DNA from: Anaerolineae bacterium | Lineage (GTDB): Bacteria; Chloroflexota; Anaerolineae; JACIWP01 | NCBI GenBank assembly: GCA_028275445.1 | Contig: JAPWUQ010000002.1 | Location: forward strand, 1 to 47,867 | DNA: 47,867 bases | Reading direction: 5' to 3' | Part shown: positions 14,447-46,844 of the stretch, piece by piece | How the letters are laid out: every line of letters starts with the position of its first letter | Position numbering within the stretch: the stretch's first letter is position 1 | Program-made: the position numbers and the translations under genes | The notes under the pieces: model-generated | Database searches by the model: none | What the model saw: the letters and a program-made list of their open reading frames with translations, nothing else | Told to the model about the DNA's origin: nothing

Positions 14447-14484
14447 AGGTTTCCCCTGTTCTCCCCATGCACGGCCCAGGACAA

Positions 14485-18488: not shown

Positions 18489-18508
18489 GGCTTTCCTCCC
18501 GCCCGCGT

Positions 18509-20254: not shown

Positions 20255-20316
20255 GCCCATTCCTTACCGACCGCTGTATTGGTGAGCGAACACGCGTGTC
20301 CAGCGACGAAAGCCGA

Positions 20317-20796: not shown

Positions 20797-21146
20797 TCAA
20801 ACGCCCCCTTACGCCATACGTAGATATAGCCTACCAGGAGGATAAGGAGGAAGACGGCCATCTCTATCAGGCCGAAGAGCTTCAACTGCTTGAGCACCAC
20901 CGCCCAAGGGTACAGGAACAGCACCTCCACGTCGAAGAGGAGGAAAAGCATGGCGGTCACATAGTATTTGATGGAGATGCGCTTTTCCCAGGGGCTCCCG
21001 AAGGGGATTTTGCCGGCCTCATACGTGTACAGCTTGTTCTTCGCCGGCTTGCGGGGGCCGATGAACATCGGGACAATCAGGGCGATGGCGGCAAACCCTG
21101 TGGCGAAGATCACCAGAATGAGAATCGGCAGGTAGTCGATCGGCAT
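20787..21146 (-). CDS. nuoA: NADH-quinone oxidoreductase subunit A
   Basis: 119-aa ND3/NuoA-like protein (YECG..PFG.....[14 protein letters not shown]) and first gene of the cluster. AGGAG lies 7 nt upstream of ATG 21146. Confidence 0.9.
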
Positions 21147-25000: not shown

Positions 25001-27264
25001 CAGGCCGCGCCGGCCGTGTACTTCCACAGCCGCAGGCTGGCGACCAGCCAGCAGAAGTAGGCCACTGCCAGCAGGCCCAGGCCCCGCGCCAGGCCGTACC
25101 CGCGCCCGGGCATATCCGGGAAGAGCAGGGCCGCCAGCGGCCAGCCGGCCAGCCCCACCAGCATCAGCACCACCAGCCAGACCAGCACCGCCGGCAGGGT
25201 GCCGGCATTGGCCAGCGGGTTCCACGCCCAATCGTGCACCGCCGGCAGTTCATCCACCGGCCGGTCCAGCATCAGGGATTTGCGGTAGGCCGGCACCGGC
25301 AGTTCGGCCGGCGGCTCCTTCACGTCCCGCCGCACCAACGGGGTGGATTGGAGCGCGTCGGCGAAGAGGGAGCGGAACTCCTCCTCGCTCAGGTCGCGCA
25401 CCTTGCGAAAGATAAGCACCTTGGGATGGTCGTACACGCTGAAGCTCTCGTCGGCGGCGTCATCGGGGAACTCTTTCCCCCACAGCCGCGGGTAGGAGGT
25501 CGCGGAATAGGCCAGCTCGAACCCCAGCCGGCCCTGGAACAGCAGTTCGTAATAGCGGATCTCCACCGGATAGCGCCAGGGGAGCCGGCGGATGGAGCCG
25601 TACAGCCGCGGCGTCGTCAGCACCACATAGTCCACCTGGTGGAGCACGCCGGCGATGTGCTGGAGCTTCTCCTCCGGCGGCATGTCGTGGTACATGTCCA
25701 TCGCCACATGGCGGTAGCCGTGCTGGCCGGGGCTTTCCCCCTCCGCCGGCAGGCTCACCGGCAGGGAATCATCCCAGATTTCCTCGCTGAGCGCCGCGCC
25801 GTCCGGGACATTGGCGTATATCCAGCGGGAGGCCTGGTACCAGGTATGGGGACGGGCATACACCTGCATAAAGGCCAGCGCCCAGAGCAGGGTGGGCACC
25901 AGCACCAGGGCGATGACCAGTCCGCCGGCGACGGCATGCCAGCGCCGGCCCTCCAGCGCCCATTCGGCCCCCAGGCGGGGCAAATGGGCGCGGCCCCAGG
26001 CCGTTGCCGGCAGGCGTTCAGCGAGGCGGCCGGCCGCGTCCGCCAGCCTCACCATCAGCCAGGCCGCCAGCAGGCAGAGGAACGGCACCAGCGGCACCAT
26101 GTAGCGCACGAACTTGACCTCATAGCCGCCCACCTGGAAGAAATAGGGCAGTGCCCAGGCCAGCACCAGGAACAGCCCCCAGCGCGCCGGCTCCCTCGTC
26201 ACCGCCTGCACCCTCTCCCAGGTGCCGCCCCTCTCGCCTGCCGGCCGGCGGATCACCGCCCACATCAGATAGATCAGTGCGACCAGCACGCCGGCCAGGC
26301 CGGCGATGCCCAATGCCCATCCCAGCCCCCAGCGCAGGAGGTTGCTCAGGTGATAGACATAGGGAGCGGTGTTGACGTACTGGCGGGTGTAGGGCCAATC
26401 CACCTCGCCGCGCACCATCTCGGCCTGCCGGCCGATGGCTTCCAGGTAGGTGCCTGGGTCCAGCAGGGCATAGAACTCAAAGGTGCCGAAGGCCAGCACC
26501 ACGCCCAGGCCGGCCAGCGCCATATAGCCGGCCGCCCTGGCCAGGCGCCGGCCGAGCCGCTCTTCGCCCGGCCGCAGGAGGACCAGCAGGCCAGCGGCAA
26601 GGATGACCGCCCCATAGGTGAAGCCGCTGACCTTGCAGGCGGCGGCGCACCCGACCATCAGCCCCATGAGCAGGGCGCGCCACCATCCGCCGCGCGCCAC
26701 AAGCCGCGCGCCGGCATAGACTGCCGCCGTCCCGAAGGCCGTCAGGGCGATGTCCACCGTCATAAAATGCGAGAGCTGGATATGGGTCACGCTGAGCGCC
26801 AGCAGGGCCGCACCGAGCAGACCCTCACGCCGGCCCCAGAAGGTGCGCCCCAGCAGGTAGACCAGCAGGACCGTGAGCAGGGAGAGCAGGGCGGTGGTGG
26901 TCCTGCCCACCACGAAGAACTGGCGGTACTCCCCCTGCCGGCCGGGGAATATCACGGTCAGGAAGCGGTAGAGGTAGACGGGCAGGGTGCCGTAGGCCAG
27001 GTCGTAATGGCCGCCGGCGGGGTCCTCGGGGTTGATGCGCCGCGGGTTCAGGGAGCTGTGATCCGGGTCCAGCAGGTTGCGCCAGTCCGGCGGCCAGGAG
27101 AGGGACACATGGGACATGGTATTGGCGAGATGACGCTCGTCGGGGTGGGGGAAGGCGTCCATCTCGCGGTCCCACTGCAGTTCGTAGAAGCGAAAGCCGG
27201 CGGCGGTCAGCAGTACCAGCACCAGAAGCAGAATGTGACCATAGCGGTGCATGTATCGCGTCAT
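22063..27264 (-). CDS. Giant polytopic membrane protein: GT-C (PMT_2/ArnT-like) glycosyltransferase + DUF2298 (chlor_Arch_YYY) + C-terminal TPR repeats
   Basis: ATG 27264 (MTRYMHRYGHILLLVLVLL) has GGAG 9 nt upstream; the 91-codon upstream extension in the track is Pro/Arg/Ser-rich and overlaps the promoter. The N-terminal roughly 650 aa are multi-TM with HPDERH in the first loop (GT-C style). The middle region has GGEKPMEFGFLNAILRS...PPYDPFFSDGYINYYYYG, the DUF2298/YYY signature. The last roughly 220 aa hold about 6 TPR units (LGNRLRQLGRYEEAVEVFRRSLQHHPED... etc). Confidence 0.85.
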   Translation of the reverse strand: MTRYMHRYGHILLLVLVLLTAAGFRFYELQWDREMDAFPHPDERHLANTMSHVSLSWPPDWRNLLDPDHSSLNPRRINPEDPAGGHYDLAYGTLPVYLYRFLTVIFPGRQGEYRQFFVVGRTTTALLSLLTVLLVYLLGRTFWGRREGLLGAALLALSVTHIQLSHFMTVDIALTAFGTAAVYAGARLVARGGWWRALLMGLMVGCAAACKVSGFTYGAVILAAGLLVLLRPGEERLGRRLARAAGYMALAGLGVVLAFGTFEFYALLDPGTYLEAIGRQAEMVRGEVDWPYTRQYVNTAPYVYHLSNLLRWGLGWALGIAGLAGVLVALIYLMWAVIRRPAGERGGTWERVQAVTREPARWGLFLVLAWALPYFFQVGGYEVKFVRYMVPLVPFLCLLAAWLMVRLADAAGRLAERLPATAWGRAHLPRLGAEWALEGRRWHAVAGGLVIALVLVPTLLWALAFMQVYARPHTWYQASRWIYANVPDGAALSEEIWDDSLPVSLPAEGESPGQHGYRHVAMDMYHDMPPEEKLQHIAGVLHQVDYVVLTTPRLYGSIRRLPWRYPVEIRYYELLFQGRLGFELAYSATSYPRLWGKEFPDDAADESFSVYDHPKVLIFRKVRDLSEEEFRSLFADALQSTPLVRRDVKEPPAELPVPAYRKSLMLDRPVDELPAVHDWAWNPLANAGTLPAVLVWLVVLMLVGLAGWPLAALLFPDMPGRGYGLARGLGLLAVAYFCWLVASLRLWKYTAGAAWFSLALLFAIGWLLLRWRRLEVRELWRRHRREVLFSEAAFLAGFGVFLLLRLLNPDLWHPLRGGEKPMEFGFLNAILRSAWMPPYDPFFSDGYINYYYYGLFAVSTLIKLAGVRPSIGFNLLIPTLAGLTTSGAFVLGWTLTGRRRFGAAAAGFVALIGNLAGAFPIRGYGGLPEVAQALRSLADGHLQGSPAGILQGLARWIAGAPLPLRTDWFWDASRAHGAYENTITEFPFFSFLFADLHPHVISLPFAILLIALLVSLVRSVKKGEVTGDLPLVLALPVTAWVLGTMAVNNMWDFPVYLMLTAGALLLAHWAADARFAGRRLPEAVLAAGLGAGLLGAAGLALYAPFFTYFQAFVHGLGQVTYPTEANYYLGMFGFFLYPLAGLTAGMALARLWRWWQAESRRRAVPALPAESVIGHGALYLEEELDEFYEAVSDGRLAPASQGLAEMPETEARPPAFRFSAWWAAGLAVPVVSAALLPLMYGRLNGLQILTFIIIGELVLGALWLVTRYDLPIEERLSALLMLMGLLVCLGVEIVYVRDHLGGTYYRMNTIFKFYMQAWVLMGLGSAGVLAMVVRRLAGRAPLLQGAWWAGFSILLALSLVYPVFASYTRVHDRFPVAPPIGTLDGQAYMGTAEYVWEGHPIYMAPDYDAIRWLEEHIEGTPVILQAPWEFYRANGVRIAWNTGFPTVINPLHENEQRYPELIPEREQDVHRIYSELDPNAVLPLLRQYHVGYIYVGPFERAVYPAAGLAKFAGLVGSVLDLVYDSGEVQIYAVRRQELGTAAPAAVPLVVPTVSPEQEARRVEAELERLRRLADANPSDAGLQFELGNRLRQLGRYEEAVEVFRRSLQHHPEDVAMYHTLGDTYQEMGRPDDALQQYQAAVNAAPQNPAAYNKLGMALRDRGRLPEAEAAFRQAIAVAPEFAEAYYHLGEVLEEMGRRDEAGELYRRLVELAPQSDWGARAAERLRALGQAGQ

Positions 27265-27328
27265 GCCAGGGTTCTCCGTGCAGACAGCGTTTCGCCGGCG
27301 GGCCGTATCCGGGCCGGCCGTCCTGCGT

Positions 27329-27357
27329 ATTGTAGATGATGGAGGGGAGCGGGTCAA
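27329..27357 (-). promoter_or_regulatory. Sigma-70-type promoter for the GT-C/DUF2298 gene
   Basis: The minus strand reads TTGACC (27357-27352), a 17-nt spacer, then TACAAT (27334-27329). Confidence 0.5.
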
Positions 27358-27392
27358 ATCCGCCGGCGGAGGACGGCCCGGCACGGCGCAAT

Positions 27393-27421
27393 TTGCCCCA
27401 CTGCCCCTGCCGTGCGATAAT
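27393..27421 (+). promoter_or_regulatory. Candidate promoter for the LuxR-Kelch gene
   Basis: TTGCCC (27393-27398), a 17-nt spacer, then GATAAT (27416-27421) preceded by TGC (extended -10 like). This is about 37 nt upstream of ATG 27458. Confidence 0.4.
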
Positions 27422-27457
27422 GCAGGGCAGGTACACCGCAGAACAAGCAGGGATGGT

Positions 27458-28786
27458 ATGGAAGAGCGCGGTTCGCCATCGCCGCTGAGCGAACGGGAGC
27501 TGGAACTGCTGACGCTGGTGGCCAAAGGGGCCAGCAATCAGCAGATCGCCCGGGAGCTGTTCATCAGCGTCAACACGGTCAAAGTGCATCTGCGCAACAT
27601 TTTCGACAAGCTGGGCGTGGAATCGCGCACGGAAGCGGCCATGCTGGCGGTGCGCGAGGGCTGGATCCAGTTAGAGGGGATGCCCGGCTCCGCGCCGGCC
27701 GCGCCCGAAGCGCCGGCCGTCCCTCCCCCGGCCCCCATTTCCCTGCCCCAGCGCATCTTTCTGCTGGCGAGCCTGCTGGTCACGCTGGGAATCGCCTTCC
27801 TGCTCCCGGCCCGCGCTATCCCCAGCGCCGGCCGGCCTGCCAGCCCCTTTGCCGAGCGCTCCGTCAGCACCTCTCTGCTCCCCACCAACACTTCCGCCAG
27901 CCGCTGGTCCCAACAGCCGGCCATGCCGCTGGCGCGCGGCCGGCAGGCCGCGGTCTGGCATGCCGGCCGGATGTACGTCATCGCCGGCGACACGAACGAC
28001 GGCATCACCGGCGCATCCGACATCTATGACACCACCAGCCGGCAGTGGAGCGCCCTGCCCTATAAGCCCACGCCGGTCAGCAACGTAGCCGCGGCGGTCG
28101 CCGCCGGCCGCATCTGGGTGCCGGGCGGCTTCCTCCCCGACGGCCGCGTCACCGCCGAGGTCGAGGCCTACAACCTGGAGACGGGGCAGTGGGAACGGGG
28201 GCCGGCGCTCCCCGAGCCGCTGTGCGGGTACGCGCTGGCGGCATGGGGCGGCAAAGTGTACCTGTTCGGCGGGGCCAACGAGCAGGGGTACACCCGCACG
28301 GCCCTGCGGCTGGACCCCGAGAAAGGCGCGTGGGAGCCTCTGCCTCCCCTTTCCTCGCCGCGGGCGTTTGCCGGCGCGGCGGTGCTGGACGACCGCATCT
28401 ATGTGGTGGGGGGATTTGACGGTCAGCGGGAGCTGAACATCTGTCAGGTCTTTTCGCCGGCCGCCTTCGAGGCCGGCCAGGACCCCTGGGGGGATTGTGC
28501 TCCCCTCTCCCTGGCGCGCGGCGGGTTGGGTCTGGCCGCCGCCGGCAAGACGCTCTATGCCATCGGCGGGGGATGGCAGAGCTATATGGCCTACAACGAG
28601 CAGTATGATGTGGAAAAGGGGGAGTGGACCCGCTTCGATACCCCCATCGAGGGGGAGTGGCGCAACCTGGCCGCCGTCAGCGACGGCAAGACGGTCTATG
28701 CCCTGGGGGGATGGAACGGGCAGTACCTGGATGCGTTCTGGACGTATCAGGCCATTGTGACTATATTCCTGCCCATCACGCCGTGA
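27458..28786 (+). CDS. Membrane-anchored LuxR/GerE-type HTH regulator with extracytoplasmic Kelch-repeat beta-propeller
   Basis: ATG 27458 opens MEERGSPSPLSERELELLTLVAKGASNQQIARELFISVNTVKVHLRNIFDKLGVESRTEAAMLA (GerE HTH). One TM helix follows (IFLLASLLVTLGIAFLLPA), then about six Kelch-like blades (...GRMYVIAGD, GRIWVPGGF, GKVYLFGG, DRIYVVGGF, KTLYAIGGG, KTVYALGGW). Confidence 0.82.
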   Translation: MEERGSPSPLSERELELLTLVAKGASNQQIARELFISVNTVKVHLRNIFDKLGVESRTEAAMLAVREGWIQLEGMPGSAPAAPEAPAVPPPAPISLPQRIFLLASLLVTLGIAFLLPARAIPSAGRPASPFAERSVSTSLLPTNTSASRWSQQPAMPLARGRQAAVWHAGRMYVIAGDTNDGITGASDIYDTTSRQWSALPYKPTPVSNVAAAVAAGRIWVPGGFLPDGRVTAEVEAYNLETGQWERGPALPEPLCGYALAAWGGKVYLFGGANEQGYTRTALRLDPEKGAWEPLPPLSSPRAFAGAAVLDDRIYVVGGFDGQRELNICQVFSPAAFEAGQDPWGDCAPLSLARGGLGLAAAGKTLYAIGGGWQSYMAYNEQYDVEKGEWTRFDTPIEGEWRNLAAVSDGKTVYALGGWNGQYLDAFWTYQAIVTIFLPITP

Positions 28787-28789: not shown

Positions 28790-29674
28790 TCAGGCGGTGG
28801 CGCGGCTGGCCGCTTTCTGTTCTTCCTCCCGGCGGATCTCGTCGTAGACGTGTCCCAGCCCGGATTTGATCTTGGCCTCCAGCTTGACGCCGGCGCTGGG
28901 CTTGCGCGGGAAGAACCCGATGATCTTGGTCAGCACGTTGCGCGCCGCCTCCGACTTGGAGCGGCCGGCAAGGTACTCCTGACGGATCAGCTCCCTCGCC
29001 ACCCGCAGGTAGTCCAGCAGGGGATCGATGACCTGCTTATCGCACACCTCCCCATGTCCCGGCACCAGCACGTCAATGGGCATGCTCTTGAGCTGTTCCA
29101 GGGCGCGCACCCATTCGCCCGAGCTTCCCTGTGCCATGAAGGGGTGCATGTTGCAGACCACCAGGTCGCCGGCGAAGACCACCCGCGCCCGAGGGACATA
29201 GACGATGGAGGATGCCGGTGTGTGCCCGCCGGCATAGATGATATCCACCACCGTATCCCCCAGATAGAGGGTCATCCGTTCCTCGAAGGTGAGCTCCGGC
29301 AGTTGGATGTCCAGATGCAGTAACTCGCGGGCGGTCTCGGGGTCTTTATCCCGATAGCGGTCGGCCAGGCGCTGTTTGAAGTTGTCGCCGTAGCCGCGCA
29401 TATGCTTCCAGGCCACCATGTGGGCGATGGCCGGCGCGCCGAAGAAGACATTTCCCAGCGCGTGCCCCTTGTGGTGATCCGTGTTGATGACGTAAATGGG
29501 CTTCTTGCCGGTCACCGCTTCCAGCTCCGCGCGCCAGGCGCGCGCTTCGCGCGGGATCATGGGCGTATCCACCACCACGATGCCCATGCTGGTGACAATG
29601 GCCCCCAGATTGGTGCCCCGGCTGTCCCGTTTCACGTACACCCCTGGAGCGACTTCCCGCATTCCCGGTTCCAT
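28790..29674 (-). CDS. MBL-fold metallo-hydrolase
   Basis: ATG 29674 has AGGAGG 6 nt upstream (MEPGMREVAPGVYV...). Metal-binding motifs are INTDHHKGH (HxHxDH-type) and a later VPGHG. Confidence 0.8.
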   Translation of the reverse strand: MEPGMREVAPGVYVKRDSRGTNLGAIVTSMGIVVVDTPMIPREARAWRAELEAVTGKKPIYVINTDHHKGHALGNVFFGAPAIAHMVAWKHMRGYGDNFKQRLADRYRDKDPETARELLHLDIQLPELTFEERMTLYLGDTVVDIIYAGGHTPASSIVYVPRARVVFAGDLVVCNMHPFMAQGSSGEWVRALEQLKSMPIDVLVPGHGEVCDKQVIDPLLDYLRVARELIRQEYLAGRSKSEAARNVLTKIIGFFPRKPSAGVKLEAKIKSGLGHVYDEIRREEEQKAASRATA

Positions 29675-29697
29675 CGCCGTCCTCCTGCTGACAGAGT

Positions 29698-30912
29698 TCA
29701 TAGGCTGGACCCTGCTCCGCCGGCCAGGAATGTCATCGCCAGCTCGAGCGCCTCCGCCACGCGATCTGCCGGCATGCCGCCGCCCTGGGCGAAGTCGGGC
29801 CGGCCGCCGCCCCCGCCGCCCACCTTCCCGCAGACCTGCCGCAGGAGCGCCTGCATATCCGCCGGCACATCCGCGGAGCGGCCCAGGAACAACTGCCCCT
29901 TATCCGGCCCCTGCCAGCCCAGCAGTACCACCACGCCGGCATGCTCCAGGAGCCGGCCGGCCAACTGCTTGACCGCCGCCGGCTCGCGGTCGGCGAACAC
30001 CTTGCGCACGACCCGCCACGTTCCAACTTGCTCCGCACCGGCCAGCAGGGCGAGCGCCTCCAGGCCGGCCAGCTCTTCCCGCGCCTTCTGCAACTGCCGC
30101 TGAGCGGCCCGGCGTTCCTCGTCCATTTTGCGGACGATTTCGGGCAGGACCTGCCAGCCCGTGGTGAGAAATGCGCACACCTCCTGGAGCACACCCTCTT
30201 TGCGGCGGTAATCCTGCAGGGCGCGCCGGCCGCACAGGAAGGTCACGCGTGTCTCTGCCCCGCGGCGCTCGACGCCGGCAATATGGATGAGGCCGACCTC
30301 GCCGGTGCTCCGGCAGTGGGTGCCGCCGCAGGCCGACCAGTCGAAGCCGGCCACCTCCACCAGCCGGATGTTTTCCGAGACCGCCGGCGGCTTGCGGAAA
30401 GGCACTTGAGCTACCTCCGCCGGCGTCAGGAAGCGCGCCGTCACCGGCCGGTCCTCGAAGACGATGCGGTTGGCCAGGTCCTCGGCAGCGCGCAGTTCCT
30501 CCGCGGGTATCGGCGCCCGGTCCAGGTCAATGGTGCTGGCATCCTCGCCGAGGTGAAAGGAGACGGTCTGTGCCCCGTTCACGCGCATGAACGCCTCGGA
30601 GAGGATGTGCTGGCCGGTATGCTGTTGCATGTGGTCATGGCGGCGCTCCCAGTTCAGCCGGCCAGTGACGTGCTCTTCCGTCAGGGGGCCGGCCAGGAGG
30701 TGCAGTACCTCGCCCGATGTCTCATCCAGCAGGACGTCCAGCACCGGCACATCGTTCAGCCAGCCGATGTCATGGGGCTGGCCGCCGCCGGTCGGGTAGA
30801 AGGCGGTGCGGTCCAGCATCACCGCCGGCCGGCCGTCCAGCTCCAGCCGGCGCACCACCCGGGCCTCGAATTCCGTCAGATAGGCGTCCTCGTAATACAG
30901 TTTCACGGTCAT
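29698..30912 (-). CDS. alaX: Alanyl-tRNA editing protein AlaX-L type (AlaRS editing domain + DHHA1-like C-terminus)
   Basis: MTVKLYYEDAYLTEFEARV opens the protein. The zinc motifs are HTGQHIL (HxxxH) and CGGTHC (CxxxH). The C-terminal Gly-rich GGGGGGRPDFAQGGG is typical of the DHHA1 region. Confidence 0.85.
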   Translation of the reverse strand: MTVKLYYEDAYLTEFEARVVRRLELDGRPAVMLDRTAFYPTGGGQPHDIGWLNDVPVLDVLLDETSGEVLHLLAGPLTEEHVTGRLNWERRHDHMQQHTGQHILSEAFMRVNGAQTVSFHLGEDASTIDLDRAPIPAEELRAAEDLANRIVFEDRPVTARFLTPAEVAQVPFRKPPAVSENIRLVEVAGFDWSACGGTHCRSTGEVGLIHIAGVERRGAETRVTFLCGRRALQDYRRKEGVLQEVCAFLTTGWQVLPEIVRKMDEERRAAQRQLQKAREELAGLEALALLAGAEQVGTWRVVRKVFADREPAAVKQLAGRLLEHAGVVVLLGWQGPDKGQLFLGRSADVPADMQALLRQVCGKVGGGGGGRPDFAQGGGMPADRVAEALELAMTFLAGGAGSSL

Positions 30913-30925: not shown

Positions 30926-33040
30926 TCATATCAGCAGGGTGATCAGCCAGGCGCCCAGCGCGATGAAGAGCAGCGCGGTTGCCAGCTTGATGCGGGCGGT
31001 GTTGGTGTTCACGAAGCGCGCCAACTGCTCCGAAGTGGTGCCGAGATAGGCCAGCACAAAGACAATGATGAGCGGCGTGATGAAAAGCAGGTTGTAGAGC
31101 AAGAGGTACATGAACGCTTTGGCGCGCATCGCCGGCACACCCATGACGAACAGGATGGTGGGCAGGTAGACCTGGCCGGTGCAGGCCAGCTCGATCAGCG
31201 AGATGACGAAGCCGGTGACGAAGGCGACGCCGGCGATGGCCTGGGCAGACGCGCCCTCGCGGATGACCTGGTTGATGCGCCGGCGCAACTGCAGGGGCAG
31301 TCGCAGTCGCATTTCCTCCAGCTTGCCGCGCCGTGCCTGGAGGTAGTCCATGAAGCTCAGCACTGCCAGCAGGAGACACAGCACCGCCGTGATGCCGTAC
31401 ACCCATTTGCCCAGGGTGGTCAGGAAGGGGAGCCTCGTCAGCACCTGATACAGCCCCACACCGACCAGCAAGTAGGTGAGAAAGACGCCGATGGCGAAGC
31501 TGGCGCCGACCATCAGGATATCGCGCCCCTTGCGCCCCACAAAGGCCAGGTAAGAGATGAAGAAGACCAGCGTGGCAAAGGCGCAGGGGTTCAGGCCGTC
31601 AATAAGGCCGGCCACAGCCACGGTCAGCACGCCGAAGGACTTGAAGCGCTCGATAATGCGCGATTGGGCGTTGGGAGCTTCCTGTTCCCAGTTCTCCCAG
31701 GTCACCTCGGCACCGCTTGCCTGGTATTTCTGGATCAGGGCCTCGATTTTGGCGGTGCTGACGTCCCCACCCACCAGGTAGTCCTGCCCGACAAATATCG
31801 CCGGCGCGGTGAGCCGGAAGCGCTCAGGCACGTTGTACTTGGTGCACAGCCATTCGTTGAGCGCGGCGTACTCGTTGATGTCAAAGAGCGAGACCTCGAG
31901 GTTGGGATATTTGTTCTTCAGGTAGTTGATCTCGTATTGGGCGCGGTCGCACTCCTGACAGCCGGCCTTGGAAAAGTAGGCCATGTGAATGGTCTTGCTC
32001 GATGCGCTGGCTGGCTGGGGCGTGCCGGTTGGCTGAGCGGTGCCGGCCGCTGACGGCGCCGGCGGCGTGATGGTGCCCTGCGGCGGCTCGAAGTACATCG
32101 GGTCAATGGGCCAGGGGGCGCCGCCCTGCGCCAGATACTCGTCAATCAGTTGCTCCAGGGAACTCTCGATGACGTTGGCGTCGGGGAGCAGATAGCGTCC
32201 GACGATCATCAGCGGGATATAGCCGCGCTGGTTCTCCGGCATGCCGGCCTTTTCCTCAATGGCCAGCTCCAGCGCGAAATTATAGGGGTTGGTGACATCG
32301 AATTCCCGCACCACCACCTTCTCGCCGTACTTCTCGTAAATCTTGGGCATGAAATCGGCGCGGATATGTTCGCAGTGGGGGCAGGTGGGCGAGAAGAAGA
32401 GCATGATATGCACCGCGCCGGGGACACTGCCGGCGGGATGCGGGGTCACTGTCGGGATCATGCGCAGGGTGGGGCGGGCGGCCGGCGTGGCAGGCGTGGG
32501 GGTGGGCGCCGGCGTGGGGAACTTGGCACCGCCGGCATCCAGGAGCCGCTGGACCGTGTCCGCCAGCTTGGCCTGCAGTTCCTCCTTGCCCAGGAGCGCG
32601 GTATCCCCCAGGAAGGCTTCCGGAATGGTGGCTTTGTCGGCGCTAATGCCGTAGGTGCTTTCCAGCGCCTGGAGGAGCTGGTACGTGCCGGCGTCATTGA
32701 TATCCATCAGCCGCACTTCCAGCGAGGCGCCGAATTTCTCCTGAAGCGCCGGCAGGAGGTTCTTCACAACTTCCTGGCAGTCCGGACAGTCCGGCGAGTG
32801 GAAGAGATACATCTGCACCACCGGCGCCTGTGCCGTGACCAGCGTAGTGAACAGTACGACGGCCAGCAGAAGGCCGGCCAGAACACTTCTCCAGGGATAA
32901 TGGCGCTGTGTCAACGCGGTCAACCTCCTCCGCAAAGTAATGTCAACTGCGACCGCAGTGCGGCTCATTATAGCATAATTTGGGCCAGCCGGCGAAACGG
33001 GCCGAAAATCATCACCGTTTTGGTTACGCTTTGCGCCCAC
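30926..33040 (-). CDS. Membrane protein with three extracytoplasmic thioredoxin-like CxxC modules fused to a DsbD/CcdA-like transmembrane thiol-transfer domain
   Basis: A signal anchor (SVLAGLLLAVVLFTTLVTAQA) is followed by three modules with CPDC, CPHC and CQEC, separated by Pro/Thr/Ala linkers. The C-terminal roughly 240 aa have about 6 TM helices with GLNPCAF and ELACTGQVYLP cysteines. The start is ambiguous: GTG 33040 (GAGGA 3 nt upstream) or ATG 32968. Confidence 0.75.
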   Translation of the reverse strand: MGAKRNQNGDDFRPVSPAGPNYAIMSRTAVAVDITLRRRLTALTQRHYPWRSVLAGLLLAVVLFTTLVTAQAPVVQMYLFHSPDCPDCQEVVKNLLPALQEKFGASLEVRLMDINDAGTYQLLQALESTYGISADKATIPEAFLGDTALLGKEELQAKLADTVQRLLDAGGAKFPTPAPTPTPATPAARPTLRMIPTVTPHPAGSVPGAVHIMLFFSPTCPHCEHIRADFMPKIYEKYGEKVVVREFDVTNPYNFALELAIEEKAGMPENQRGYIPLMIVGRYLLPDANVIESSLEQLIDEYLAQGGAPWPIDPMYFEPPQGTITPPAPSAAGTAQPTGTPQPASASSKTIHMAYFSKAGCQECDRAQYEINYLKNKYPNLEVSLFDINEYAALNEWLCTKYNVPERFRLTAPAIFVGQDYLVGGDVSTAKIEALIQKYQASGAEVTWENWEQEAPNAQSRIIERFKSFGVLTVAVAGLIDGLNPCAFATLVFFISYLAFVGRKGRDILMVGASFAIGVFLTYLLVGVGLYQVLTRLPFLTTLGKWVYGITAVLCLLLAVLSFMDYLQARRGKLEEMRLRLPLQLRRRINQVIREGASAQAIAGVAFVTGFVISLIELACTGQVYLPTILFVMGVPAMRAKAFMYLLLYNLLFITPLIIVFVLAYLGTTSEQLARFVNTNTARIKLATALLFIALGAWLITLLI

Positions 33041-33089: not shown

Positions 33090-34166
33090 TCATGCCTGGC
33101 GCAGGGCGCGTGCCACATCAAACGGATCGGTGCTGACTACGCTGGCGGCGTACAGCTCCATGGAGCCGATGTCAGCGGTGCGGCTGTACAGCGGGCCGCG
33201 ATCCACCACCCGCACGATGGTGGGGAAGCCCTCCCAATCCTCGTTCACGCCGTCGATCGGGCGCCAGTACAGCGCCAGACTGAAGCTCTGGGCGCCCAGC
33301 CGGCCTACCAGCGTTTCCAGTGCCCGGTAGACCGCCTGCCGGAAGGGGATGTCCGGGCGCTCGCCGATGACCAGCATCTCTTTCTCCTTTACCGGAGTCA
33401 GGTGCGCCAGGATGACTGCTCCCGGCATGTCCAATGCCAGTCCCAGCGCACGGTGCACAGCGATGAGGTCATCGAAATAGTTCGCGCCGTGGCCCAGTTG
33501 ATAGAGTTGAGCGGCGCGGCGCCAGTGCTCGACCTTCGGATAATGCATGTCCCGGGTCAGGGTCATCTGCGCGTGGCCATGGAGGATGGAGGCGCCGGCC
33601 TTCCACAGGCAGTTCCACAGGAAGAAGAAATAGCGCGCGTCGCGGTCGGCGTTATGCGCCTCCTTGGCCCAGCGCAGAGCCACATCGAAGTAGTCAATCA
33701 CCTGCTCCTCGCTGAAGCGCAGGGGATGATGTTCCTGGAAGACCACCACGCCGTGGAGGCCGTCGCATTTGGCCACATTGCTGGCCGTCAGGGCGTACTT
33801 CCCGCGCACCCGACCGAAGACGTCCGCCGGCGTCTGGTTCTCTGGATCGCAGAACATGTCGCCCTGGGTGGAGAGGATATCCTCTTCCAGCCGGGCGGGG
33901 TCCATCGGCAGGGGCCGGCGCCCCCGCAGGGGGTTGAACAGGGTGCCCTCCAGGGTGATGCGGTTGGTCACCCGGAGGACCGTTTGCTCCTGCACCTCTT
34001 CCAGCGAGCCGAAGTTGGCCTTCACCCATTCCCGCATGGCCGGCGGAATGCGGAGCCGGCCCACCGCTTTGCTGACCAGGAAGATGCGCTCGAAGCGCCG
34101 GCGCTCCTCGGCCGGCAACCGCTCCACCAGGCTTCCCAGCTCCATGATCGAGGCGTTAGGATCCAT
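33090..34166 (-). CDS. HIT/GalT-superfamily nucleotidyltransferase-like protein
   Basis: ATG 34166 (MDPNASIMELG...) has GGAAAGG upstream; the track's longer ORF would read through two terminator-like hairpins. The HxHxQ motif is in ASILHGHAQM, as in galactose-1-phosphate uridylyltransferase and related HIT-fold enzymes. Confidence 0.7.
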   Translation of the reverse strand: MDPNASIMELGSLVERLPAEERRRFERIFLVSKAVGRLRIPPAMREWVKANFGSLEEVQEQTVLRVTNRITLEGTLFNPLRGRRPLPMDPARLEEDILSTQGDMFCDPENQTPADVFGRVRGKYALTASNVAKCDGLHGVVVFQEHHPLRFSEEQVIDYFDVALRWAKEAHNADRDARYFFFLWNCLWKAGASILHGHAQMTLTRDMHYPKVEHWRRAAQLYQLGHGANYFDDLIAVHRALGLALDMPGAVILAHLTPVKEKEMLVIGERPDIPFRQAVYRALETLVGRLGAQSFSLALYWRPIDGVNEDWEGFPTIVRVVDRGPLYSRTADIGSMELYAASVVSTDPFDVARALRQA

Positions 34167-34193
34167 CACTGTCAACCTTTCCGCTCCTGAAAC

Positions 34194-34228
34194 AGCCTCC
34201 CGCAGGTTTCGAAGGCCTGCGGGAGGCT
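34194..34228 (-). promoter_or_regulatory. 13-bp stem-loop in the predicted 5' UTR of the GalT-like operon (attenuator or stabiliser candidate)
   Basis: The arm agcctcccgcagg (34194-34206) pairs with cctgcgggaggct (34216-34228). It lies between the predicted promoter (34240-34268) and the RBS. On the minus strand it is followed by UGUUUC. Confidence 0.4.
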
Positions 34229-34239
34229 TTGTTGGCCCG

Positions 34240-34268
34240 ACTATACCATAACCGGACCGTTCCGGCAA
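34240..34268 (-). promoter_or_regulatory. Candidate promoter for the GalT-like/Trx-DsbD/AlaX/MBL operon
   Basis: The minus strand reads TTGCCG (34268-34263), a 17-nt spacer, then TATAGT (34245-34240). Confidence 0.4.
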
Positions 34269-34302
34269 AAAGCCTCCCGCCGGTTTCTGGCCGGCGGGAG
34301 GC
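34267..34302 (-). terminator. Rho-independent terminator of the LysM gene
   Basis: On the minus strand a 12-bp GC stem forms between gcctcccgccgg and ccggcgggaggc (34272-34302), followed by UUUUU (complement of AAAAA 34267-34271). It lies 31 nt after the stop at 34333. Confidence 0.7.
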
Positions 34303-34332
34303 ACGCAACCTACCACAAACCCAGCGCCCCAA

Positions 34333-39306: not shown

Positions 39307-42273
39307 ATGATGGATGGCACGCAATCCCGCGGTATTGGGAGCACGTTAGAGCAGCTCTTGGAGAGCAAATGGACCGGTTGGATCATCAACCTGGTGGTCA
39401 TCCCGGCCTTGCTGGCGGCAAGCTTACTGCTTCCGCCGATTTCCTTACGCGAGCGATTGTTTGAGGCCGGCTTTGCCCCCATCGCGATGGGCGGCGGCTC
39501 GGTGGTGGACCCGGACGGCACGCAGGTGACCCTGCCGGCAGAAGGACTGCAGGCGCCCGTCCGCGTCCGGCTCACATCTATCCCACGCCTGGAGTTCCTG
39601 GAGGGTTCCGCCGGCCGCGCCCTGCGCAAGGCCGCAGAAAGCATTCCCGAATATCTCGTCATGCGCAGTCCGCTCTATCAGGTTGCCCTGCGGGGGAGCA
39701 TGCCCTCTCAGGCCATCCTGACCATTCCCATTCCCAATGATTCGGAGCCTTATTCCACCCTGGACATCTATGCCTGGCAGGATGACGCCTGGACCTGGCT
39801 CCCACACAACATCATCGCTGAGGATGATGTCATCGAGTCGCACGTGGGCTGGCTGCCGGGAGCCTTTGCCGTCTTTCAGACGGATGCGCGCGCCCCATCG
39901 GTGGGCATTGACCTGGAGGGGGAGGTAGCCCTGCCGGCCAATATGCTGAGTTCCGCCAGCGAGGTCTTCCCCCAGGGCCTCTACATGGCCGATGATGGGA
40001 GCATTGTGGGCGACCTGCCGGCCTCGGTGGAGGCGGCGCGCCAGGCCGGCCTGCGCATCATCCCCACCGTGCGCAACTGGGGGCCGGACGGCGTGGTGCG
40101 CAGTGACCTGACCGACAACATGCTCATCTCCGAGCAGGCGCGCCAGGCCCATGTGCAGGCGCTGGTGAGCCTGGCGGTCAATCATGACTTCGCCGGCGTC
40201 GAGGTGTACTACCGCGGGGTCAGCCCGGACCTGCGGGCCGAGTTCCGCAACTTTATCCAGGCGCTGTCCGACGGCCTGCACACCAACGGCAAACTGCTGT
40301 CGGTGCGCGTGGACCCGCCGGTGCAGATCGCCGAGGATCGCTGGGATACCGGCGCGTATGACTGGGTAGCGCTGGGCATGGCCGCGGATATCTTCCGCGT
40401 GGAAGGCCTTCCGAACCCGGACGCCTGGCGCGCCGGCGGCCAGATGGAACAGTTCCTGAGCTGGGCGGTGGGCCAGGTGGATCGCTTCAAACTGCAACCC
40501 GTCCTGTCTGCCTACAGCGTGGAGCAGGTGGGGAACACGTACACGGCCATCCCGTACTCCCAAGCGTTGGCGGCCTTCACCCAGGTGGAGGTGAGCGGCT
40601 CCAACGTCATCAATCCTGGCCAGCATGTGGCCTTCGCGCTGAAGGCGGCGCGGGAATCCGGCGGGGTGAAGTTCGACGAAGCGCTGGGCACGTATGTGTT
40701 CAGCTACACGGACTCCGCCGGCCGCCGGCATACCGTTTATCTGGAGAACGCCGCCAGCCTGGCCCATAAGACCAGCCTGCTGGCCGGCTATAACCTGCGC
40801 GGCGTGGCGGTGGAGCATCTGGCCGGCGAGCAGAACGACGAGCTGATCTGGCCGGTGCTCCAACAGTACGCCGCCGCGCCGGGTGCCAAACCAGGCGCCA
40901 ACCCGCTGACCGCTACCTGGACGGTGCGCAAGTCCAGCGGCGAACCGCTGGTCTCCGAATCCCGCCCCCTGGATCAGCCGGTCTATGACTGGGTGGCGCC
41001 GCAGGAGCCGGGCGAATATGTGGTGGAGGTGGCTATCGCCGGCGGTGATGGCAAGACGCTGGTGGCCGGCACCCCCATCGCCATGGTCGTGGCATCGCCC
41101 ACTCCTACTCCGACCATGACCCCGACGCCGACGGCCACGCCCACGCCGGCGCCGACCGCAACTCCCAAACCGAAGGCGACGGCCACGCCGAAACCGCAGG
41201 CCTCCGCCGGCGAGAGCGCCAGCCCGGCGCCGGCGCCGCGCAACACCAGCTTCGGCTACGGCATCCAGGCGCACTGGTACTATACCGACCATGCCCAGCT
41301 CGTGAACCATATCAAGGCGCTGGGGTTCAACTGGACCAAACAGCAGGTCGAGTGGAAGGCCGTCGAATCGGGCGGCAAGGGGCAGTACAATTGGGGCGAG
41401 CTGGATCGGATCGTGGAAAGCTGTCATGCCAACGGCATCAACCTTCTGCTGAGCGTGGTGAAGGCGCCGGCCTGGGCGCGTCCGCCCGGAGCGGACCTGA
41501 GGGTGGAAGGCCCGCCGGCCAACCCGCAGGATTTCGCCGACTTCCTCAGCGCCATGGCCGCCCGCTATAAGGGCAAGGTGCAGGCCTATGAGATCTGGAA
41601 CGAGCAGAACCTGCACTATGAATGGGGCAATCAGCCCATCAACGCGGCGCAGTATATGGAACTGCTGAAGGCCGCCTACCGCGCCATCAAGGCGGTGGAC
41701 CCCAATGCCATCGTGGTCAGCGGCGCCCTTACCCCCACAGGTGTGAACGACGGCCGTACCGCCATTGATGACGTGGTGTACCTGGAGCAGATGTATCAGA
41801 ATGGGCTGAAGAACTACTCCGATGCCATCGGCGCCCATCCGTCGGGCTATAACAATCCGCCCGATGCCAAGTTCGGCTATAATGACCCGGCCGAGCCGGC
41901 CTTCAAGAACCACCCCAGCTTCTTCTTCCGGGAGACCATGGAGCGCTACCGCAACGTCATGGTCAAGTACGGCGACAGCAACAAGAAGATCTGGGCGACG
42001 GAATTCGGCTGGGCATCTATCGAGAACCTGGCACCTTCGCCGGCGCCCGGCTACGAGTATGCCGCCAACGTCACCGAGGCGGAACAGGCGGAATATATCC
42101 GCCGCGCCTATGAGATGGGCCGCAATTGGGGCTGGGTCGGCGTGATGTTCCTCTGGAACCTGAACTATGCCCCGGTCGCCGGCCCGCAGGACGAAAAGGC
42201 GGCCTTTAGCATCGTGCGGTCCGACTGGAGCCAGCGGCCGGCCTTCGTCGCCCTGGCCAACATGCCCAAATAA
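39307..42273 (+). CDS. Membrane-anchored multidomain glycoside-hydrolase-like protein: degenerate GH18-like module + Pro/Thr linker + clan GH-A (GH5-like) (beta/alpha)8 domain
   Basis: AGGAGG (39299-39304) precedes ATGATG, and the second ATG (39310) has the better spacing. An N-terminal TM anchor is present (WIINLVVIPALLAASLLL). The mid region follows a YdhD/GH18-like pattern (FAGVEVYYRGV...FIQALSDGLHTNGKLLSVRV...GAYDWVALG), but the DxxDxDxE motif is replaced. The PT-rich linker is PTPTPTMTPTPTATPTPAPTATPKPK. The C-terminal domain has YEIWNEQN (acid/base NE) and IWATEFGW (nucleophile E). Confidence 0.85.
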   Translation: MMDGTQSRGIGSTLEQLLESKWTGWIINLVVIPALLAASLLLPPISLRERLFEAGFAPIAMGGGSVVDPDGTQVTLPAEGLQAPVRVRLTSIPRLEFLEGSAGRALRKAAESIPEYLVMRSPLYQVALRGSMPSQAILTIPIPNDSEPYSTLDIYAWQDDAWTWLPHNIIAEDDVIESHVGWLPGAFAVFQTDARAPSVGIDLEGEVALPANMLSSASEVFPQGLYMADDGSIVGDLPASVEAARQAGLRIIPTVRNWGPDGVVRSDLTDNMLISEQARQAHVQALVSLAVNHDFAGVEVYYRGVSPDLRAEFRNFIQALSDGLHTNGKLLSVRVDPPVQIAEDRWDTGAYDWVALGMAADIFRVEGLPNPDAWRAGGQMEQFLSWAVGQVDRFKLQPVLSAYSVEQVGNTYTAIPYSQALAAFTQVEVSGSNVINPGQHVAFALKAARESGGVKFDEALGTYVFSYTDSAGRRHTVYLENAASLAHKTSLLAGYNLRGVAVEHLAGEQNDELIWPVLQQYAAAPGAKPGANPLTATWTVRKSSGEPLVSESRPLDQPVYDWVAPQEPGEYVVEVAIAGGDGKTLVAGTPIAMVVASPTPTPTMTPTPTATPTPAPTATPKPKATATPKPQASAGESASPAPAPRNTSFGYGIQAHWYYTDHAQLVNHIKALGFNWTKQQVEWKAVESGGKGQYNWGELDRIVESCHANGINLLLSVVKAPAWARPPGADLRVEGPPANPQDFADFLSAMAARYKGKVQAYEIWNEQNLHYEWGNQPINAAQYMELLKAAYRAIKAVDPNAIVVSGALTPTGVNDGRTAIDDVVYLEQMYQNGLKNYSDAIGAHPSGYNNPPDAKFGYNDPAEPAFKNHPSFFFRETMERYRNVMVKYGDSNKKIWATEFGWASIENLAPSPAPGYEYAANVTEAEQAEYIRRAYEMGRNWGWVGVMFLWNLNYAPVAGPQDEKAAFSIVRSDWSQRPAFVALANMPK

Positions 42274-43814: not shown

Positions 43815-45137
43815 ATGTGTGACACGCTGGTGGCTCTGGGGAACAGCACGGCGGACGGCAGTGTGCTGTTCGCCAAAAATTCGGACCGGGAGGCCAACGA
43901 GGCTCAAGGGCTGGTGTACTTTCCGCCGGCCCTGCACCGCTCCGACGAGACGGTGAAGTGCACCTTCATCGAAATCCCCCAGGTGCGTGAGACCCTGGGG
44001 GTCATCCTTTCCAAACCCTTCTGGATGTTCGGGTGCGAGATGGGGGCCAACGAGGCCGGCGTCGTCATGGGCAACGAGGCGGTCTTCACCAAACTGCCGT
44101 ATGAGACGAGCGGGCTGACCGGCATGGACCTGATGCGTCTGGCCCTGGAGCGCGCCGATACCGCTCATAAGGCGCTCTATACCATCATCGAGCTGATGGG
44201 CAAGTACGGCCAGTGCGCGCTGGGGGGCTACCGGCACACCATCAAGTATCACAACGCCTTCATCATCGCCGATGCCAAAGAGGCCTATGTGCTGGAGACC
44301 GCCGGCCCGCATTGGGTCGTGGAAAAGGTGCGCGACGTGCGGAGCATCTCCAATGGGCTGTCCATCGGGAGCGAATGGGACGATGCCTCGCCGGGGCTGG
44401 TGGAATACGCTGTCCAGCGGGGATGGTGCCGCTCAAAGGCGGAGTTCCACTTCGCGCGCTGTTACCGCGAGCCGATATACACCTTTTTCAGCGCCAGCTA
44501 TCAGCGCCATGCCTGCACCAGTACTTTCCTGCAGGAGCACAAGGGCCGGCTGACCCCGCGGGATTTGGCGCGCCTCCTGCGCGACCACGGCCCGCACGGC
44601 CAATCCCCTGACTGGCGGCCGGAGCAGGGGCTGTTGATGCAGGTATGCGCCCATGCCTCCTGGGGACCCATTCGCGGGGGCGGTGCCCAGACCGCCGGCT
44701 CCATGATCGCACAGCTCCGGCCGGACGGGGCCACCTTCTGGTTCACGGGCACCGCGGCGCCCTGCACGGGGATCTTCAAGCCGGTCCGCTTTGCCGCCGG
44801 CGAGCGCCTGCCGGCCGTCTTTGGCCCGGAGCCTGGGGCGACATATGACGAACGGGTGCGCTGGTGGCGGCATGAGGTACTGCACCGCGCCGTACTGCTG
44901 GATTACCCGACGCGCATGGCCCTTTATCGCGATGAGCGCGATGCGCTGGAGGGGGAGTTTTTCGCCGGCGGAGAGGGTCCCGATTTCGTGGAGGAGTGCT
45001 TCGCCCGGGCGGATGCCGCCGAACAGGAATGGACGCGGCGCGTGCGCGCAACGCCGGTGCGCCGCCGGCCTGGACTGCTGTACCGCCGCTATTGGGAGGC
45101 GCAGAACCGCGCCGCACAGATGCCGGCGCTGACATGA
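43815..45137 (+). CDS. C69-family/secernin-like Ntn-hydrolase peptidase
   Basis: AAGGAGG (43801-43807) lies 7 nt before ATG 43815, giving MCDTLVALGNSTADGSVLFAKNSDREANEAQ.LVYFP. Cys2 would be the N-terminal nucleophile after Met removal, as in dipeptidase A and secernin. Confidence 0.78.
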   Translation: MCDTLVALGNSTADGSVLFAKNSDREANEAQGLVYFPPALHRSDETVKCTFIEIPQVRETLGVILSKPFWMFGCEMGANEAGVVMGNEAVFTKLPYETSGLTGMDLMRLALERADTAHKALYTIIELMGKYGQCALGGYRHTIKYHNAFIIADAKEAYVLETAGPHWVVEKVRDVRSISNGLSIGSEWDDASPGLVEYAVQRGWCRSKAEFHFARCYREPIYTFFSASYQRHACTSTFLQEHKGRLTPRDLARLLRDHGPHGQSPDWRPEQGLLMQVCAHASWGPIRGGGAQTAGSMIAQLRPDGATFWFTGTAAPCTGIFKPVRFAAGERLPAVFGPEPGATYDERVRWWRHEVLHRAVLLDYPTRMALYRDERDALEGEFFAGGEGPDFVEECFARADAAEQEWTRRVRATPVRRRPGLLYRRYWEAQNRAAQMPALT

Positions 45138-45150
45138 AAGGGCGCACCGC

Positions 45151-45579
45151 ATGGGAGAAACAGCACACGAGGAGATCGCGCAGCGCGCCGGCAGTTTGAT
45201 GCGGCAGGGCTATCACTGAGCGGAGGCCGTCCTGCGCGCCGTTGGCGAGCACTGGTGGGGGGAGTTGGACGAGCGCTTCCTGCGCTCGGCGACCGCCTTC
45301 TGCGGCGGGATCGGCGGCACGCGGGAGGAGCTGTGCGGCGCGTTTTCTGCCGGCGTGATGCTGGTGAGCGCCCGCTACGGCCGGCTCACCCCGCACGAGG
45401 ATGAACTGCCGGCCTATGCCCGTGCGCGCGCCTTTCGTCTGCGCTTCCTCCTGCGCTGGAAGACCCTGCGCTGTGCGCCCCTGCGCGAGCAGGTGTACGG
45501 CCCCGGCGGCCCAGGCTCCTGCGTGGCCGTGGGAGAGGAGACCGTCCGCATCCTCCTAAGCCTGCTGGAGGGCACATGA
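45151..45579 (+). CDS. C-GCAxxG-C-C family putative redox protein with in-frame TGA (candidate selenocysteine U23; alternative is a nonsense pseudogene)
   Basis: ATG 45151 opens MGETAHEEIAQRAGSLMRQGYH, then TGA (45217-45219), then the same frame continues AEAVLRAVGEHWWGELDERFLRSATAFCGGIGGTREELCGAFSAGVMLVSARYG...LRCAPL...SCVAVGEETV to TGA 45577-45579. The family motif G-[FY]-N-C-A-[EQ]-A-V-L places the TGA at the first invariant Cys. Confidence 0.6.
45233..45251 (+). promoter_or_regulatory. Candidate bacterial SECIS-like hairpin downstream of the in-frame UGA
   Basis: UGCGCGCC-GUU-GGCGAGCA forms 7 Watson-Crick pairs plus one G.A mismatch. The apical loop contains GU and lies about 24 nt after the U of UGA. 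This was folded by eye only. Confidence 0.3.
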
Positions 45580-46844
45580 GCAGTCCGCCGGCGTCCTCTG
45601 TCCCTGTCCCCCGCTTGTTACTGCCACTGGGCGCGGCGGTCATCCTCTCGCTGACCGGCGACCAGACCATGTATGCCTCCCTGGCCACCCAGACGGAGGT
45701 GGTGCGCATCAGCATAACGGCGGTGGGGGTCATGCTGGGCGTGAACCGCCTGGTGCGCATCCCCGGCAATCCATTGGGGGGATGGCTGGTGGACCGCTTT
45801 GGCCGGCGGCGTCCCTTTATTGCCGGCATGCTGTTGGGGGCCGTTTCCACCGCGCTGTGCGGCCTGGCGGTGGGCTTCTGGCCGCTCCTGCTGGCGCGCG
45901 CCCTGTGGGGCATCGCCTGGACGCTGATCAACGTCACCGCCATGACCATGGTCATGGATATCACCACGCCGGCAGACCGCGGCCGGACGGCCGGCCTGTA
46001 TCAAATCTCGGTGCTGATGGGCCTTTCCATCATGGCGGTCGGCAGTGGCGCGCTGGTGGACACCCTGGGGTTCCGGCAGACGCTGTTCCTGGGCGCCGGC
46101 GTCACCGGCGTGGGGCTGTTGATCGCTTTGCTGGCCCTGCCGGAGACCGCGCCGGCCCTCCGGCGGTTTCCGCCGGAGCCCGTTGGACGGTGGAGCTGGC
46201 GGCGGGTCAGGGATGGCCTGCGCCGGCAGATCACCCCACCCATCCTCATTTCCATCATCCTGTATGCGCTGACCAATCTGGCCGGCAACGGCGTGGTGAT
46301 GTCAACGGTGGGACTGCTCCTGCGCCTGCGCTACGGCGAGGTGGTCCCGTTGGGGGATCGCGCCATCGGTGTGCCGACGCTGGCCGGCCTTCTGCTGGGC
46401 ATTGGCCCTATCATGGGCATCATCGCCGGCCCGCTCGCCGGCTGGCTCTCGGACCGGGCCGGCCAGCGTTGGCGGGTGATGCGCTGGGGGCTGGCGTTGG
46501 GCATTCTCGGTTTTGCCCTGCTGTCCCTTGACGGCGCAGTGGCGGTCATCGCCGCCGGCGTGATGGTGGCGGCGTTCGCCGACGGCATCCTGACCCCTAC
46601 CACCATGGCGCAGACGGGGGACCTATCGCGGCGGGAGCGGCAGGGGGTGCTCATGGGGCTGTATGCCGCCGGCGGGGATCTGGGGAGCGCGGCCGGCCCC
46701 TTCCTGGCATATGCGCTGGCGTACCTGCTGGAGCTGAAATGGGTGTACGTCCTCTGCATGGTGCTCTATTTCCTCGCCCTGCTGGCGACGTGGAGCGTTG
46801 GCAGGGAACGGGCCTCTTCGCCTCGGGAGATTCCCTCTTTGTGA
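45576..46844 (+). CDS. MFS transporter
   Basis: The 422-aa protein has about 12 predicted TM segments and the MFS loop motif GWLVDRFGRRRP between TM2 and TM3. ATG 45576 overlaps the upstream stop (ATGA). Confidence 0.85.
   Translation: MSSPPASSVPVPRLLLPLGAAVILSLTGDQTMYASLATQTEVVRISITAVGVMLGVNRLVRIPGNPLGGWLVDRFGRRRPFIAGMLLGAVSTALCGLAVGFWPLLLARALWGIAWTLINVTAMTMVMDITTPADRGRTAGLYQISVLMGLSIMAVGSGALVDTLGFRQTLFLGAGVTGVGLLIALLALPETAPALRRFPPEPVGRWSWRRVRDGLRRQITPPILISIILYALTNLAGNGVVMSTVGLLLRLRYGEVVPLGDRAIGVPTLAGLLLGIGPIMGIIAGPLAGWLSDRAGQRWRVMRWGLALGILGFALLSLDGAVAVIAAGVMVAAFADGILTPTTMAQTGDLSRRERQGVLMGLYAAGGDLGSAAGPFLAYALAYLLELKWVYVLCMVLYFLALLATWSVGRERASSPREIPSL

Follow-up and report, generated by a model that had tools for sequence, protein, structure and literature searches.

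An in-frame UGA at the first family cysteine of a C-GCAxxG-C-C protein from an Anaerolineae bacterium points to a selenoprotein truncated by gene calling

Selenocysteine (Sec)-containing proteins of the C-GCAxxG-C-C type were first reported as a 'putative redox protein' family, with a predicted selenocysteine insertion sequence (SECIS), in the delta-1 symbiont of Olavius algarvensis (Zhang & Gladyshev 2007, PMC1976440). They are also covered by two reviews that cite this work (PMC9312934 and PMC13188914), the latter of which gives forms 1 and 2, with MGD8741185.1 and WP_012158890.1 as their respective examples, and NCBI names the model TIGR01909 "C-GCAxxG-C-C family (seleno)protein". An earlier sequence-only reading of the DNA studied here had noted that Sec-containing members of this family are annotated, and these sources bear it out. 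In this work, we analyzed a stretch of 47,867 nt from an Anaerolineae bacterium (Bacteria; Chloroflexota; Anaerolineae; JACIWP01), that is, positions 1 to 47,867 of the forward strand of contig JAPWUQ010000002.1 (assembly GCA_028275445.1), which we call the window. In a gene located at 45151-45579 (+), an in-frame UGA (45217-45219) falls exactly on the first of the four cysteines (Cys) of the family, and the comparison of homologs makes it very probable that this codon is decoded as Sec in a 142-residue C-GCAxxG-C-C protein.

Based on our data, this mis-annotated gene is a new member of a family of selenoproteins that was first reported in 2007, and the novelty is limited to an Anaerolineae/Chloroflexota clade that is publicly annotated only as truncated proteins. 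It shares with the published C-GCAxxG-C-C selenoproteins the same hidden Markov model (HMM) family, the Sec/Cys pairing and a SECIS just past the UGA with a conserved loop G, but the published examples are a deltaproteobacterial symbiont and WP_012158890.1, whereas those found here come from Anaerolineae/Chloroflexota and unassigned metagenomic lineages. A partial likeness also exists to NF045501 (HUGP/GUXX-star fusion selenoprotein), in whose name the 'HU' corresponds to the His-Sec dipeptide: positions 8-77 of the model match residues 7-77 of the product, a part that contains the ...YH-U... site. This match suggests that curation already covers a His-Sec site at this position. That model, however, describes a fusion protein of 236 positions, while the gene studied here encodes a stand-alone domain of 142 aa that scores 48.3 bits against a cutoff of 325 and is not a member. 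The score was also below the cutoff for NF045669 (DVU_1555 family C-GCAxxG-C-C protein; 35.4 bits, cutoff 103). As for the RNA element, the hairpin resembles the bacterial SECIS consensus (bSECISearch model of Zhang & Gladyshev, as described in PMC13188914) and the SECIS of the Escherichia coli fdhF gene in being a stem-loop inside the coding sequence (CDS), 3' of the UGA, with a small loop opening in GU. It differs from the E. coli elements in showing no sequence similarity to them, in having a minimal predicted loop of 3 nt and, in the clade of the window, a G.A mismatch.

Direct reading of the window bore out all the coordinates proposed earlier for the gene and its signals. The open reading frame (ORF) called by gene finders (45265-45579, +; 104 aa) starts at an internal TTG and is a calling artefact, being without the first 38 residues of the protein. 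In frame with it, a run of 22 sense codons, MGETAHEEIAQRAGSLMRQGYH, begins at ATG 45151 and is followed by the TGA at 45217-45219 and then by 119 more codons, which begin with AEAVLRAVGEH... and run up to a terminal TGA at 45577-45579. The full CDS thus has 142 codons before its stop, of which the 23rd is the proposed Sec codon. The proposed start sits in a normal 13-nt intergenic gap, since 45137 is the last position of the peptidase C69-like gene upstream, and a weak Shine-Dalgarno-like AAAGGG (45137-45142, +) precedes it with an 8-nt spacer. In the orthologs, GGAG, AAGGAG or GAGGAG is found at the matching place, and the starts lie 20-25 codons before the UGA.

Family membership, the identity of the UGA column, the conservation of the UGA, the fit of the hairpin to the SECIS model and its covariation, and the site-specific nature of the recoding are what our data show. 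Family HMMs were scored on the 142-aa read-through product, with U written as C. The product reached 58.5 bits with PF09719 (C_GCAxxG_C_C; cutoff 27), in an alignment that begins at model position 1, and 49.2 bits with TIGR01909, a narrow margin over the cutoff of 47.4. By these curated cutoffs, it belongs to the C-GCAxxG-C-C family (PF09719/TIGR01909). An alignment with 21 full-length homologs revealed invariant columns at residues 23 (the UGA), 62, 108 and 124, besides G53, G63 and F99. The three other family cysteines that the sequence-only reading had pointed out are therefore present and invariant: Cys62 (TGC, 45334-45336, +) in the motif ELCGAFSAG, Cys108 (TGT, 45472-45474, +) in LRCAPL and Cys124 (TGC, 45520-45522, +) in GSCVAV. 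Both the CG-x-x-x-x-G motif (LCGAFSAG at residue 62) and the four Cys/Sec positions that the family requires were found, and the 142-residue single-domain product is comparable in length to the full-length Cys homologs (135-159 aa). HMMs, column alignment and hairpin together support the proposal that ORF calling split this gene at a UGA that encodes Sec in place of the first invariant Cys.

Among the 23 full-length homologs retrieved, column 23 is occupied by Cys in 22 and by Gly in one. The latter (P0022) shows YH-G-SES at this otherwise invariant Cys/Sec position, which we record as an observation in its own right. The best full-length Cys form, P0020, is 43% identical to the product over 136 residues, with no gap through the site, where ...ARAGELMRQGYH-C-SEAVL... 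in P0020 stands against ...AQRAGSLMRQGYH-*-AEAVL... in the window. Because this alignment runs through the N-terminus, the 22 codons before the UGA represent homologous coding sequence rather than a leader. The Cys forms P0020, P0006 and P0031 have the same length, the same helical domain and the same conserved motifs, with identities reaching 43-49%, but they carry TGC or TGT in place of TGA, and two of the three Cys forms examined for the hairpin are without it.

Since TGC differs from TGA by a single substitution, and gene calls and public records contain only truncated proteins, the sequence-only reading had left room for a fresh pseudogene or for a sequencing or assembly error, in which a TGC was mutated or mis-read as TGA. 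The homologs exclude it. Of the homologous contigs with a gene call truncated there, all 19 have TGA at this codon (L001-L012 and L014-L020). They come from independent samples or metagenome-assembled genomes (MAGs), range from 28 to 99% in protein identity and include 13 distinct sequences in the 45 nt counted from the TGA; the coding sequence is in frame and conserved at the protein level on both sides of the TGA, and the downstream hairpin covaries (see below). A word-indexed protein search retrieved three close relatives, each of which had been called without its N-terminus, and close-relative contigs from four different samples (L001-L004) displayed the same synteny and the same in-frame TGA. 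In the scan of species-representative genomes, the three MAGs found all had TGA at the column: an uncultured Anaerolineae MAG (L005, 86% identity), a Chloroflexota MAG (L006, 31%) and an Anaerolineales MAG (L007, 28%). Metagenomes added further TGA forms, two at 98-99% identity (L008, L009), two at 48% (L010, L011) and one at 39% (L012), and a sole Cys form (L013, 36%, TGT). The close orthologs thus carry TGA instead of a Cys codon, and, as homologs down to 28% protein identity share it, the comparative data refute a pseudogene or an error. Reviving this explanation, whose probability is practically nil, would require a systematic artefact common to all assemblies.

How many relatives are concealed by truncated gene calls can be estimated from an exhaustive search with HMMER through 1.84 billion representative proteins, which gave 307 matches. 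Among the best 55 of these, 27 are calls of 92-137 aa that start at query residues 5-9, directly past the column, and 24 others are full-length. In every truncated representative cluster whose DNA was examined (5/5; L014-L020), the column holds TGA, preceded by G-[YF]-[HR]. Judging from these sequences, about one in two of the nearest representative clusters appears to be a Sec form. In NCBI and IMG, the orthologs from Anaerolineae are likewise truncated, with 104-115 aa and no selenoprotein label, as exemplified by MBC7241614.1 and MGQ9517524.1 (Anaerolineae bacterium).

The same truncated calls could be taken at face value, with the UGA as a genuine stop, a shortened three-Cys protein as the functional product and the 22 upstream codons as a leader or untranslated sequence. 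There are in-frame TTG, GTG or ATG codons downstream of the UGA that could serve as starts, and no Sec machinery was found in the window. Nevertheless, the called starts of the truncated orthologs lie at non-homologous positions (a TTG 16 codons past the UGA in the window, a Met 5 codons past it in others and GTG elsewhere) and no Shine-Dalgarno sequence precedes them, while the upstream start has GGAG-type sites before it. Starting at 45265 would moreover leave the protein without the AVGEH helix, which is conserved, and without positions 1-38 of the Pfam model. A genuine stop is also at odds with the homology between the upstream peptide and the N-terminus of the Cys forms, and leaves unexplained why the stop sits on the invariant Cys column in every lineage. 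We consider it very unlikely. The stop codon of the gene overlaps the ATG of the following gene (ATGA, 45576-45579), and the sequence-only reading had taken this overlap as a sign that ribosomes must reach the end of the frame. This argument does not discriminate, because ribosomes translating the truncated ORF would reach that stop as well.

The UGA is followed by a hairpin. The SECIS-type hairpin of the window (45233-45251, +), UGCGCGCC-GUU-GGCGAGCA, is formed by the pairing of 45233-45240 with 45244-45251 around a loop at 45241-45243. Its stem has one G.A mismatch (45236/45248), at a position that is U-A in other lineages. All Sec forms share a common architecture, consisting of the UGA, 13 nt, an 8-bp stem and a 3-nt GUN loop. 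According to the bacterial SECIS model, the loop has 3-9 nt with a G in its first two positions, the upper stem has 4-16 bp, the distance from UGA to loop is 16-37 nt and the folding energy is at most -7.5 kcal/mol (PMC13188914). The window hairpin satisfies every one of these constraints, with a loop of 3 nt that begins with G then U, a stem of 8 bp, a loop starting 21 nt past the UGA and -8.8 kcal/mol when folded alone, so that the SECIS-like loop and spacing noticed in the sequence-only reading were upheld.

The hairpin is also supported by covariation. In an ungapped alignment of 14 sequences, 94.2% of the cells are paired and double changes occur in four of the eight pairs; none of 500 shuffles matched the observed pairing, the double-change count or the covariation score, and sliding the 3' arm by 1-3 columns reduced pairing to 21-51%. 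In three lineages, residues encoded by the two arms switch together: Leu/Glu (CUC/GAG) becomes Phe/Lys (UUU/AAA) in L020 and Ile/Gly (AUC/GGU) in L012, and Ala/Gly (GCC/GGC) becomes Thr/Gly (ACC/GGU) in L016. RNA structure thus constrains the protein sequence within a conserved helix, at 45230-45254 of the window and at the equivalent positions of L012, L016 and L020. As the stem overlaps the conserved peptide LxAVGEH, the share of the pairing owed to coding was assessed by synonymous-codon resampling, in which the peptide is held fixed and codons are drawn from the usage of each gene (for the window, from the window's genes). The probability of obtaining an equal or better pairing varied from 0.02 to 0.21 per sequence, and the Fisher combined P was 1e-4 over nine lineages with one value each, or 1.2e-4 without the clade of the window. 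Hence the constraint at the RNA level is real family-wide, although the window alone cannot demonstrate it.

We also built a covariance model from nine distant Sec forms, leaving out the window and its close clade, and scanned the whole window with it on both strands with filters off. The test of the UGA region called for by the sequence-only reading had a clear outcome: one significant match, 45217-45261 (+), with 37.2 bits and E = 1.8e-7, followed by a runner-up of only 12.6 bits. The held-out Sec forms of the window's clade scored 36.7-43.5 bits. The Cys forms L024 and L013 scored 11.1 and 7.6 bits, respectively, these being the two of the three examined Cys forms in which the element is absent.

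UGA retains its ordinary meaning in this genome region. TGA is the commonest stop in the window (19 of the 32 genes), terminating both the gene studied here and its upstream neighbor. A genome-wide reassignment of UGA was considered and rejected on this basis, and the recoding must be site-specific. A scan for other TGA-interrupted genes, based on GC content at third codon positions, returned only two ordinary same-frame nuo junctions; it missed the known site and is thus insensitive.

Some of our results weigh against Sec decoding, or at least against the hairpin as proof of it. First, the window's own resampling P is only 0.15, because its GC-rich codon bias already favors the codons in question. 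This weak signal agrees with the unremarkable local folding energy, which is no better than that of shuffled sequence (z = +0.57 and +1.54); as the region is no more stable than shuffled GC-rich sequence, folding energy by itself says nothing about the hairpin. Second, the hairpin overlaps the conserved peptide LxAVGEH, so that the covariance-model score and the sequence conservation partly reflect protein homology. Third, a perfect hairpin of 8 bp with a GUG loop is located 13 nt downstream of the TGC in the full-length Cys form P0031 (L021:1567-1601, L022:433-467 and L023:160-194), which reaches 42.8 bits with the covariance model. The element is therefore not strictly diagnostic of, or exclusive to, Sec forms. 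The P0031 hairpin is most simply read as a relic SECIS, left in a conserved and GC-biased peptide by a recent change from Sec to Cys. There was also no Rfam match, either in the window at the gathering threshold or in 45100-45400 at E <= 10, which is uninformative given that bacterial SECIS elements are poorly covered in Rfam. Finally, neither tRNA(Sec) nor selA, selB or selD was found within the 47.9-kb window by a tRNA scan, which detected no tRNA genes at all, and by Pfam searches on about 35 genes. On the other side, the literature on the lineage lends indirect support to Sec decoding: SelB and Sec-type formate dehydrogenases are present in single-cell genomes of Anaerolineales, and a SelB is encoded by Anaerolinea thermophila UNI-1 (PMC4959059). 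Three selenoprotein families have been recorded in Chloroflexi (PMC1794560), for which tRNA(Sec) species are also on record (PMC5389517).

The hairpin of P0031 bears as well on the idea that the UGA is read through but not as Sec, by near-cognate insertion of Trp or Cys or by Cys carried on tRNA(Sec); the hairpin would then be a general stimulator of read-through or pausing. In favor of this idea, a Cys form retains the same hairpin, whose role could thus be independent of Sec, and the window contains no Sec machinery. Yet the P0031 hairpin is also explained by the recent Sec-to-Cys change mentioned above, and the recoded site is an invariant redox-type Cys column, a hallmark of Sec/Cys pairs, in a family curated as a selenoprotein family. 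Furthermore, the hairpin fits every bacterial SECIS constraint, down to the G-U with which the loop begins, and Trp at the invariant Cys would be non-functional. Read-through without Sec is for these reasons quite unlikely. A related thought is that the hairpin may have a second, Sec-independent role, such as a programmed translational pause for the insertion of a cofactor or metal, with Sec and Cys forms interconverting freely on a fixed RNA scaffold. It comes from the fact that the hairpin is embedded in the LxAVGEH helix, forces paired amino-acid switches and is intact in at least one Cys form. We regard it as unlikely, and mention it as a speculation.

Decoding of the UGA as Sec is, by the evidence above, best accounted for by standard bacterial Sec insertion, which is the best-supported mechanism. 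Ribosomes would start at ATG 45151 and pause at the UGA, where the mRNA hairpin at 45233-45251 would recruit SelB-GTP-Sec-tRNA(Sec). Sec would then be inserted at residue 23 in place of termination by release factor 2 (RF2), and translation would continue to the TGA at 45577-45579, where the ATGA overlap probably couples the downstream transporter gene. In this scheme, the participation of SelB and tRNA(Sec) is inferred, as is the insertion of Sec rather than another residue. The Sec would replace the first of the four invariant Cys, most likely in a redox or metal-binding center, a location suggested by the four invariant Cys/Sec residues that this helical domain contains. For the Cys homolog P0020, AlphaFold2 predicted a domain of seven helices with high confidence (pLDDT 95.5), and a fold comparison of this model with the PDB gave no meaningful neighbor (best E = 1.2 and TM about 0.25). 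A PDB search by sequence gave no meaningful neighbor and no functional clue either.

Gene neighborhoods were compared among the Sec forms. The gene that follows the selenoprotein in the window encodes a major facilitator superfamily (MFS) transporter of 422 aa (45576-46844, +), whose ATG overlaps the selenoprotein stop. This pairing, with its ATGA overlap, is kept only in the window's own clade and is absent from the distant Sec forms, which adjoin a galactokinase and an M24 peptidase, or hydrolases of the metallo-beta-lactamase (MBL) fold. No conserved neighborhood was found among the distant Sec forms, and the comparison yields no functional inference. In two unrelated lineages, an MBL-fold gene is located directly beside the Sec-form gene, upstream in L010 (1887-2870) and 2 nt downstream in L016 (1850-2779). 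The window has an MBL-fold gene of its own (28790-29701), far from the selenoprotein gene.

The remainder of the window contains other features worth recording. A complete 13-gene operon for complex I (nuoA-N) occupies 7097-21146 (-), with three antiporter-like subunits and a fused nuoC/D gene (18509-20260) that joins the 30-kDa and 49-kDa domains. A subtilase (Peptidase_S8) of 1649 aa (1748-6697, -) carries PPC, cohesin and dockerin domains and is adjoined by a 223-aa cohesin-domain protein (1006-1677, -), in a cellulosome-like cohesin-dockerin pairing. Farther along lies a membrane protein of 1824 aa (22063-27537, -) with a glycosyltransferase region of the PMT type, DUF2298 (365 bits) and a TPR array at its C-terminus. 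An unusual protein of 704 aa (30926-33040, -) combines several weak thioredoxin-fold domains (Glrx-like, Thioredoxin_4, Glutaredoxin and Thioredoxin_2). Four sizeable ORFs with a strong coding signature have no Pfam match above cutoff (39307-42273, +; 33090-34316, -; 21304-22035, -; and 211-924, +); among them, the ORF of 988 aa has only sub-threshold matches to glycosyl-hydrolases 18 and 39.

The present finding opens no new class of system and does not reveal the biochemical function of the family. It does correct a recurrent error in public annotation, by which orthologs are recorded without their first catalytic residue, and it offers a teaching example of an RNA structure that constrains a protein through paired amino-acid switches. 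Decoding of this UGA as Sec would add a selenoprotein to an abundant and mostly uncultured lineage, and would imply that the organism decodes Sec. Sec use in this subfamily is probably widely under-counted, because 27 of the 55 best clusters are truncated past the column and all five of those checked have TGA. If this is true, the subfamily would be a clade that mostly uses selenium and has been concealed by truncated gene calling.

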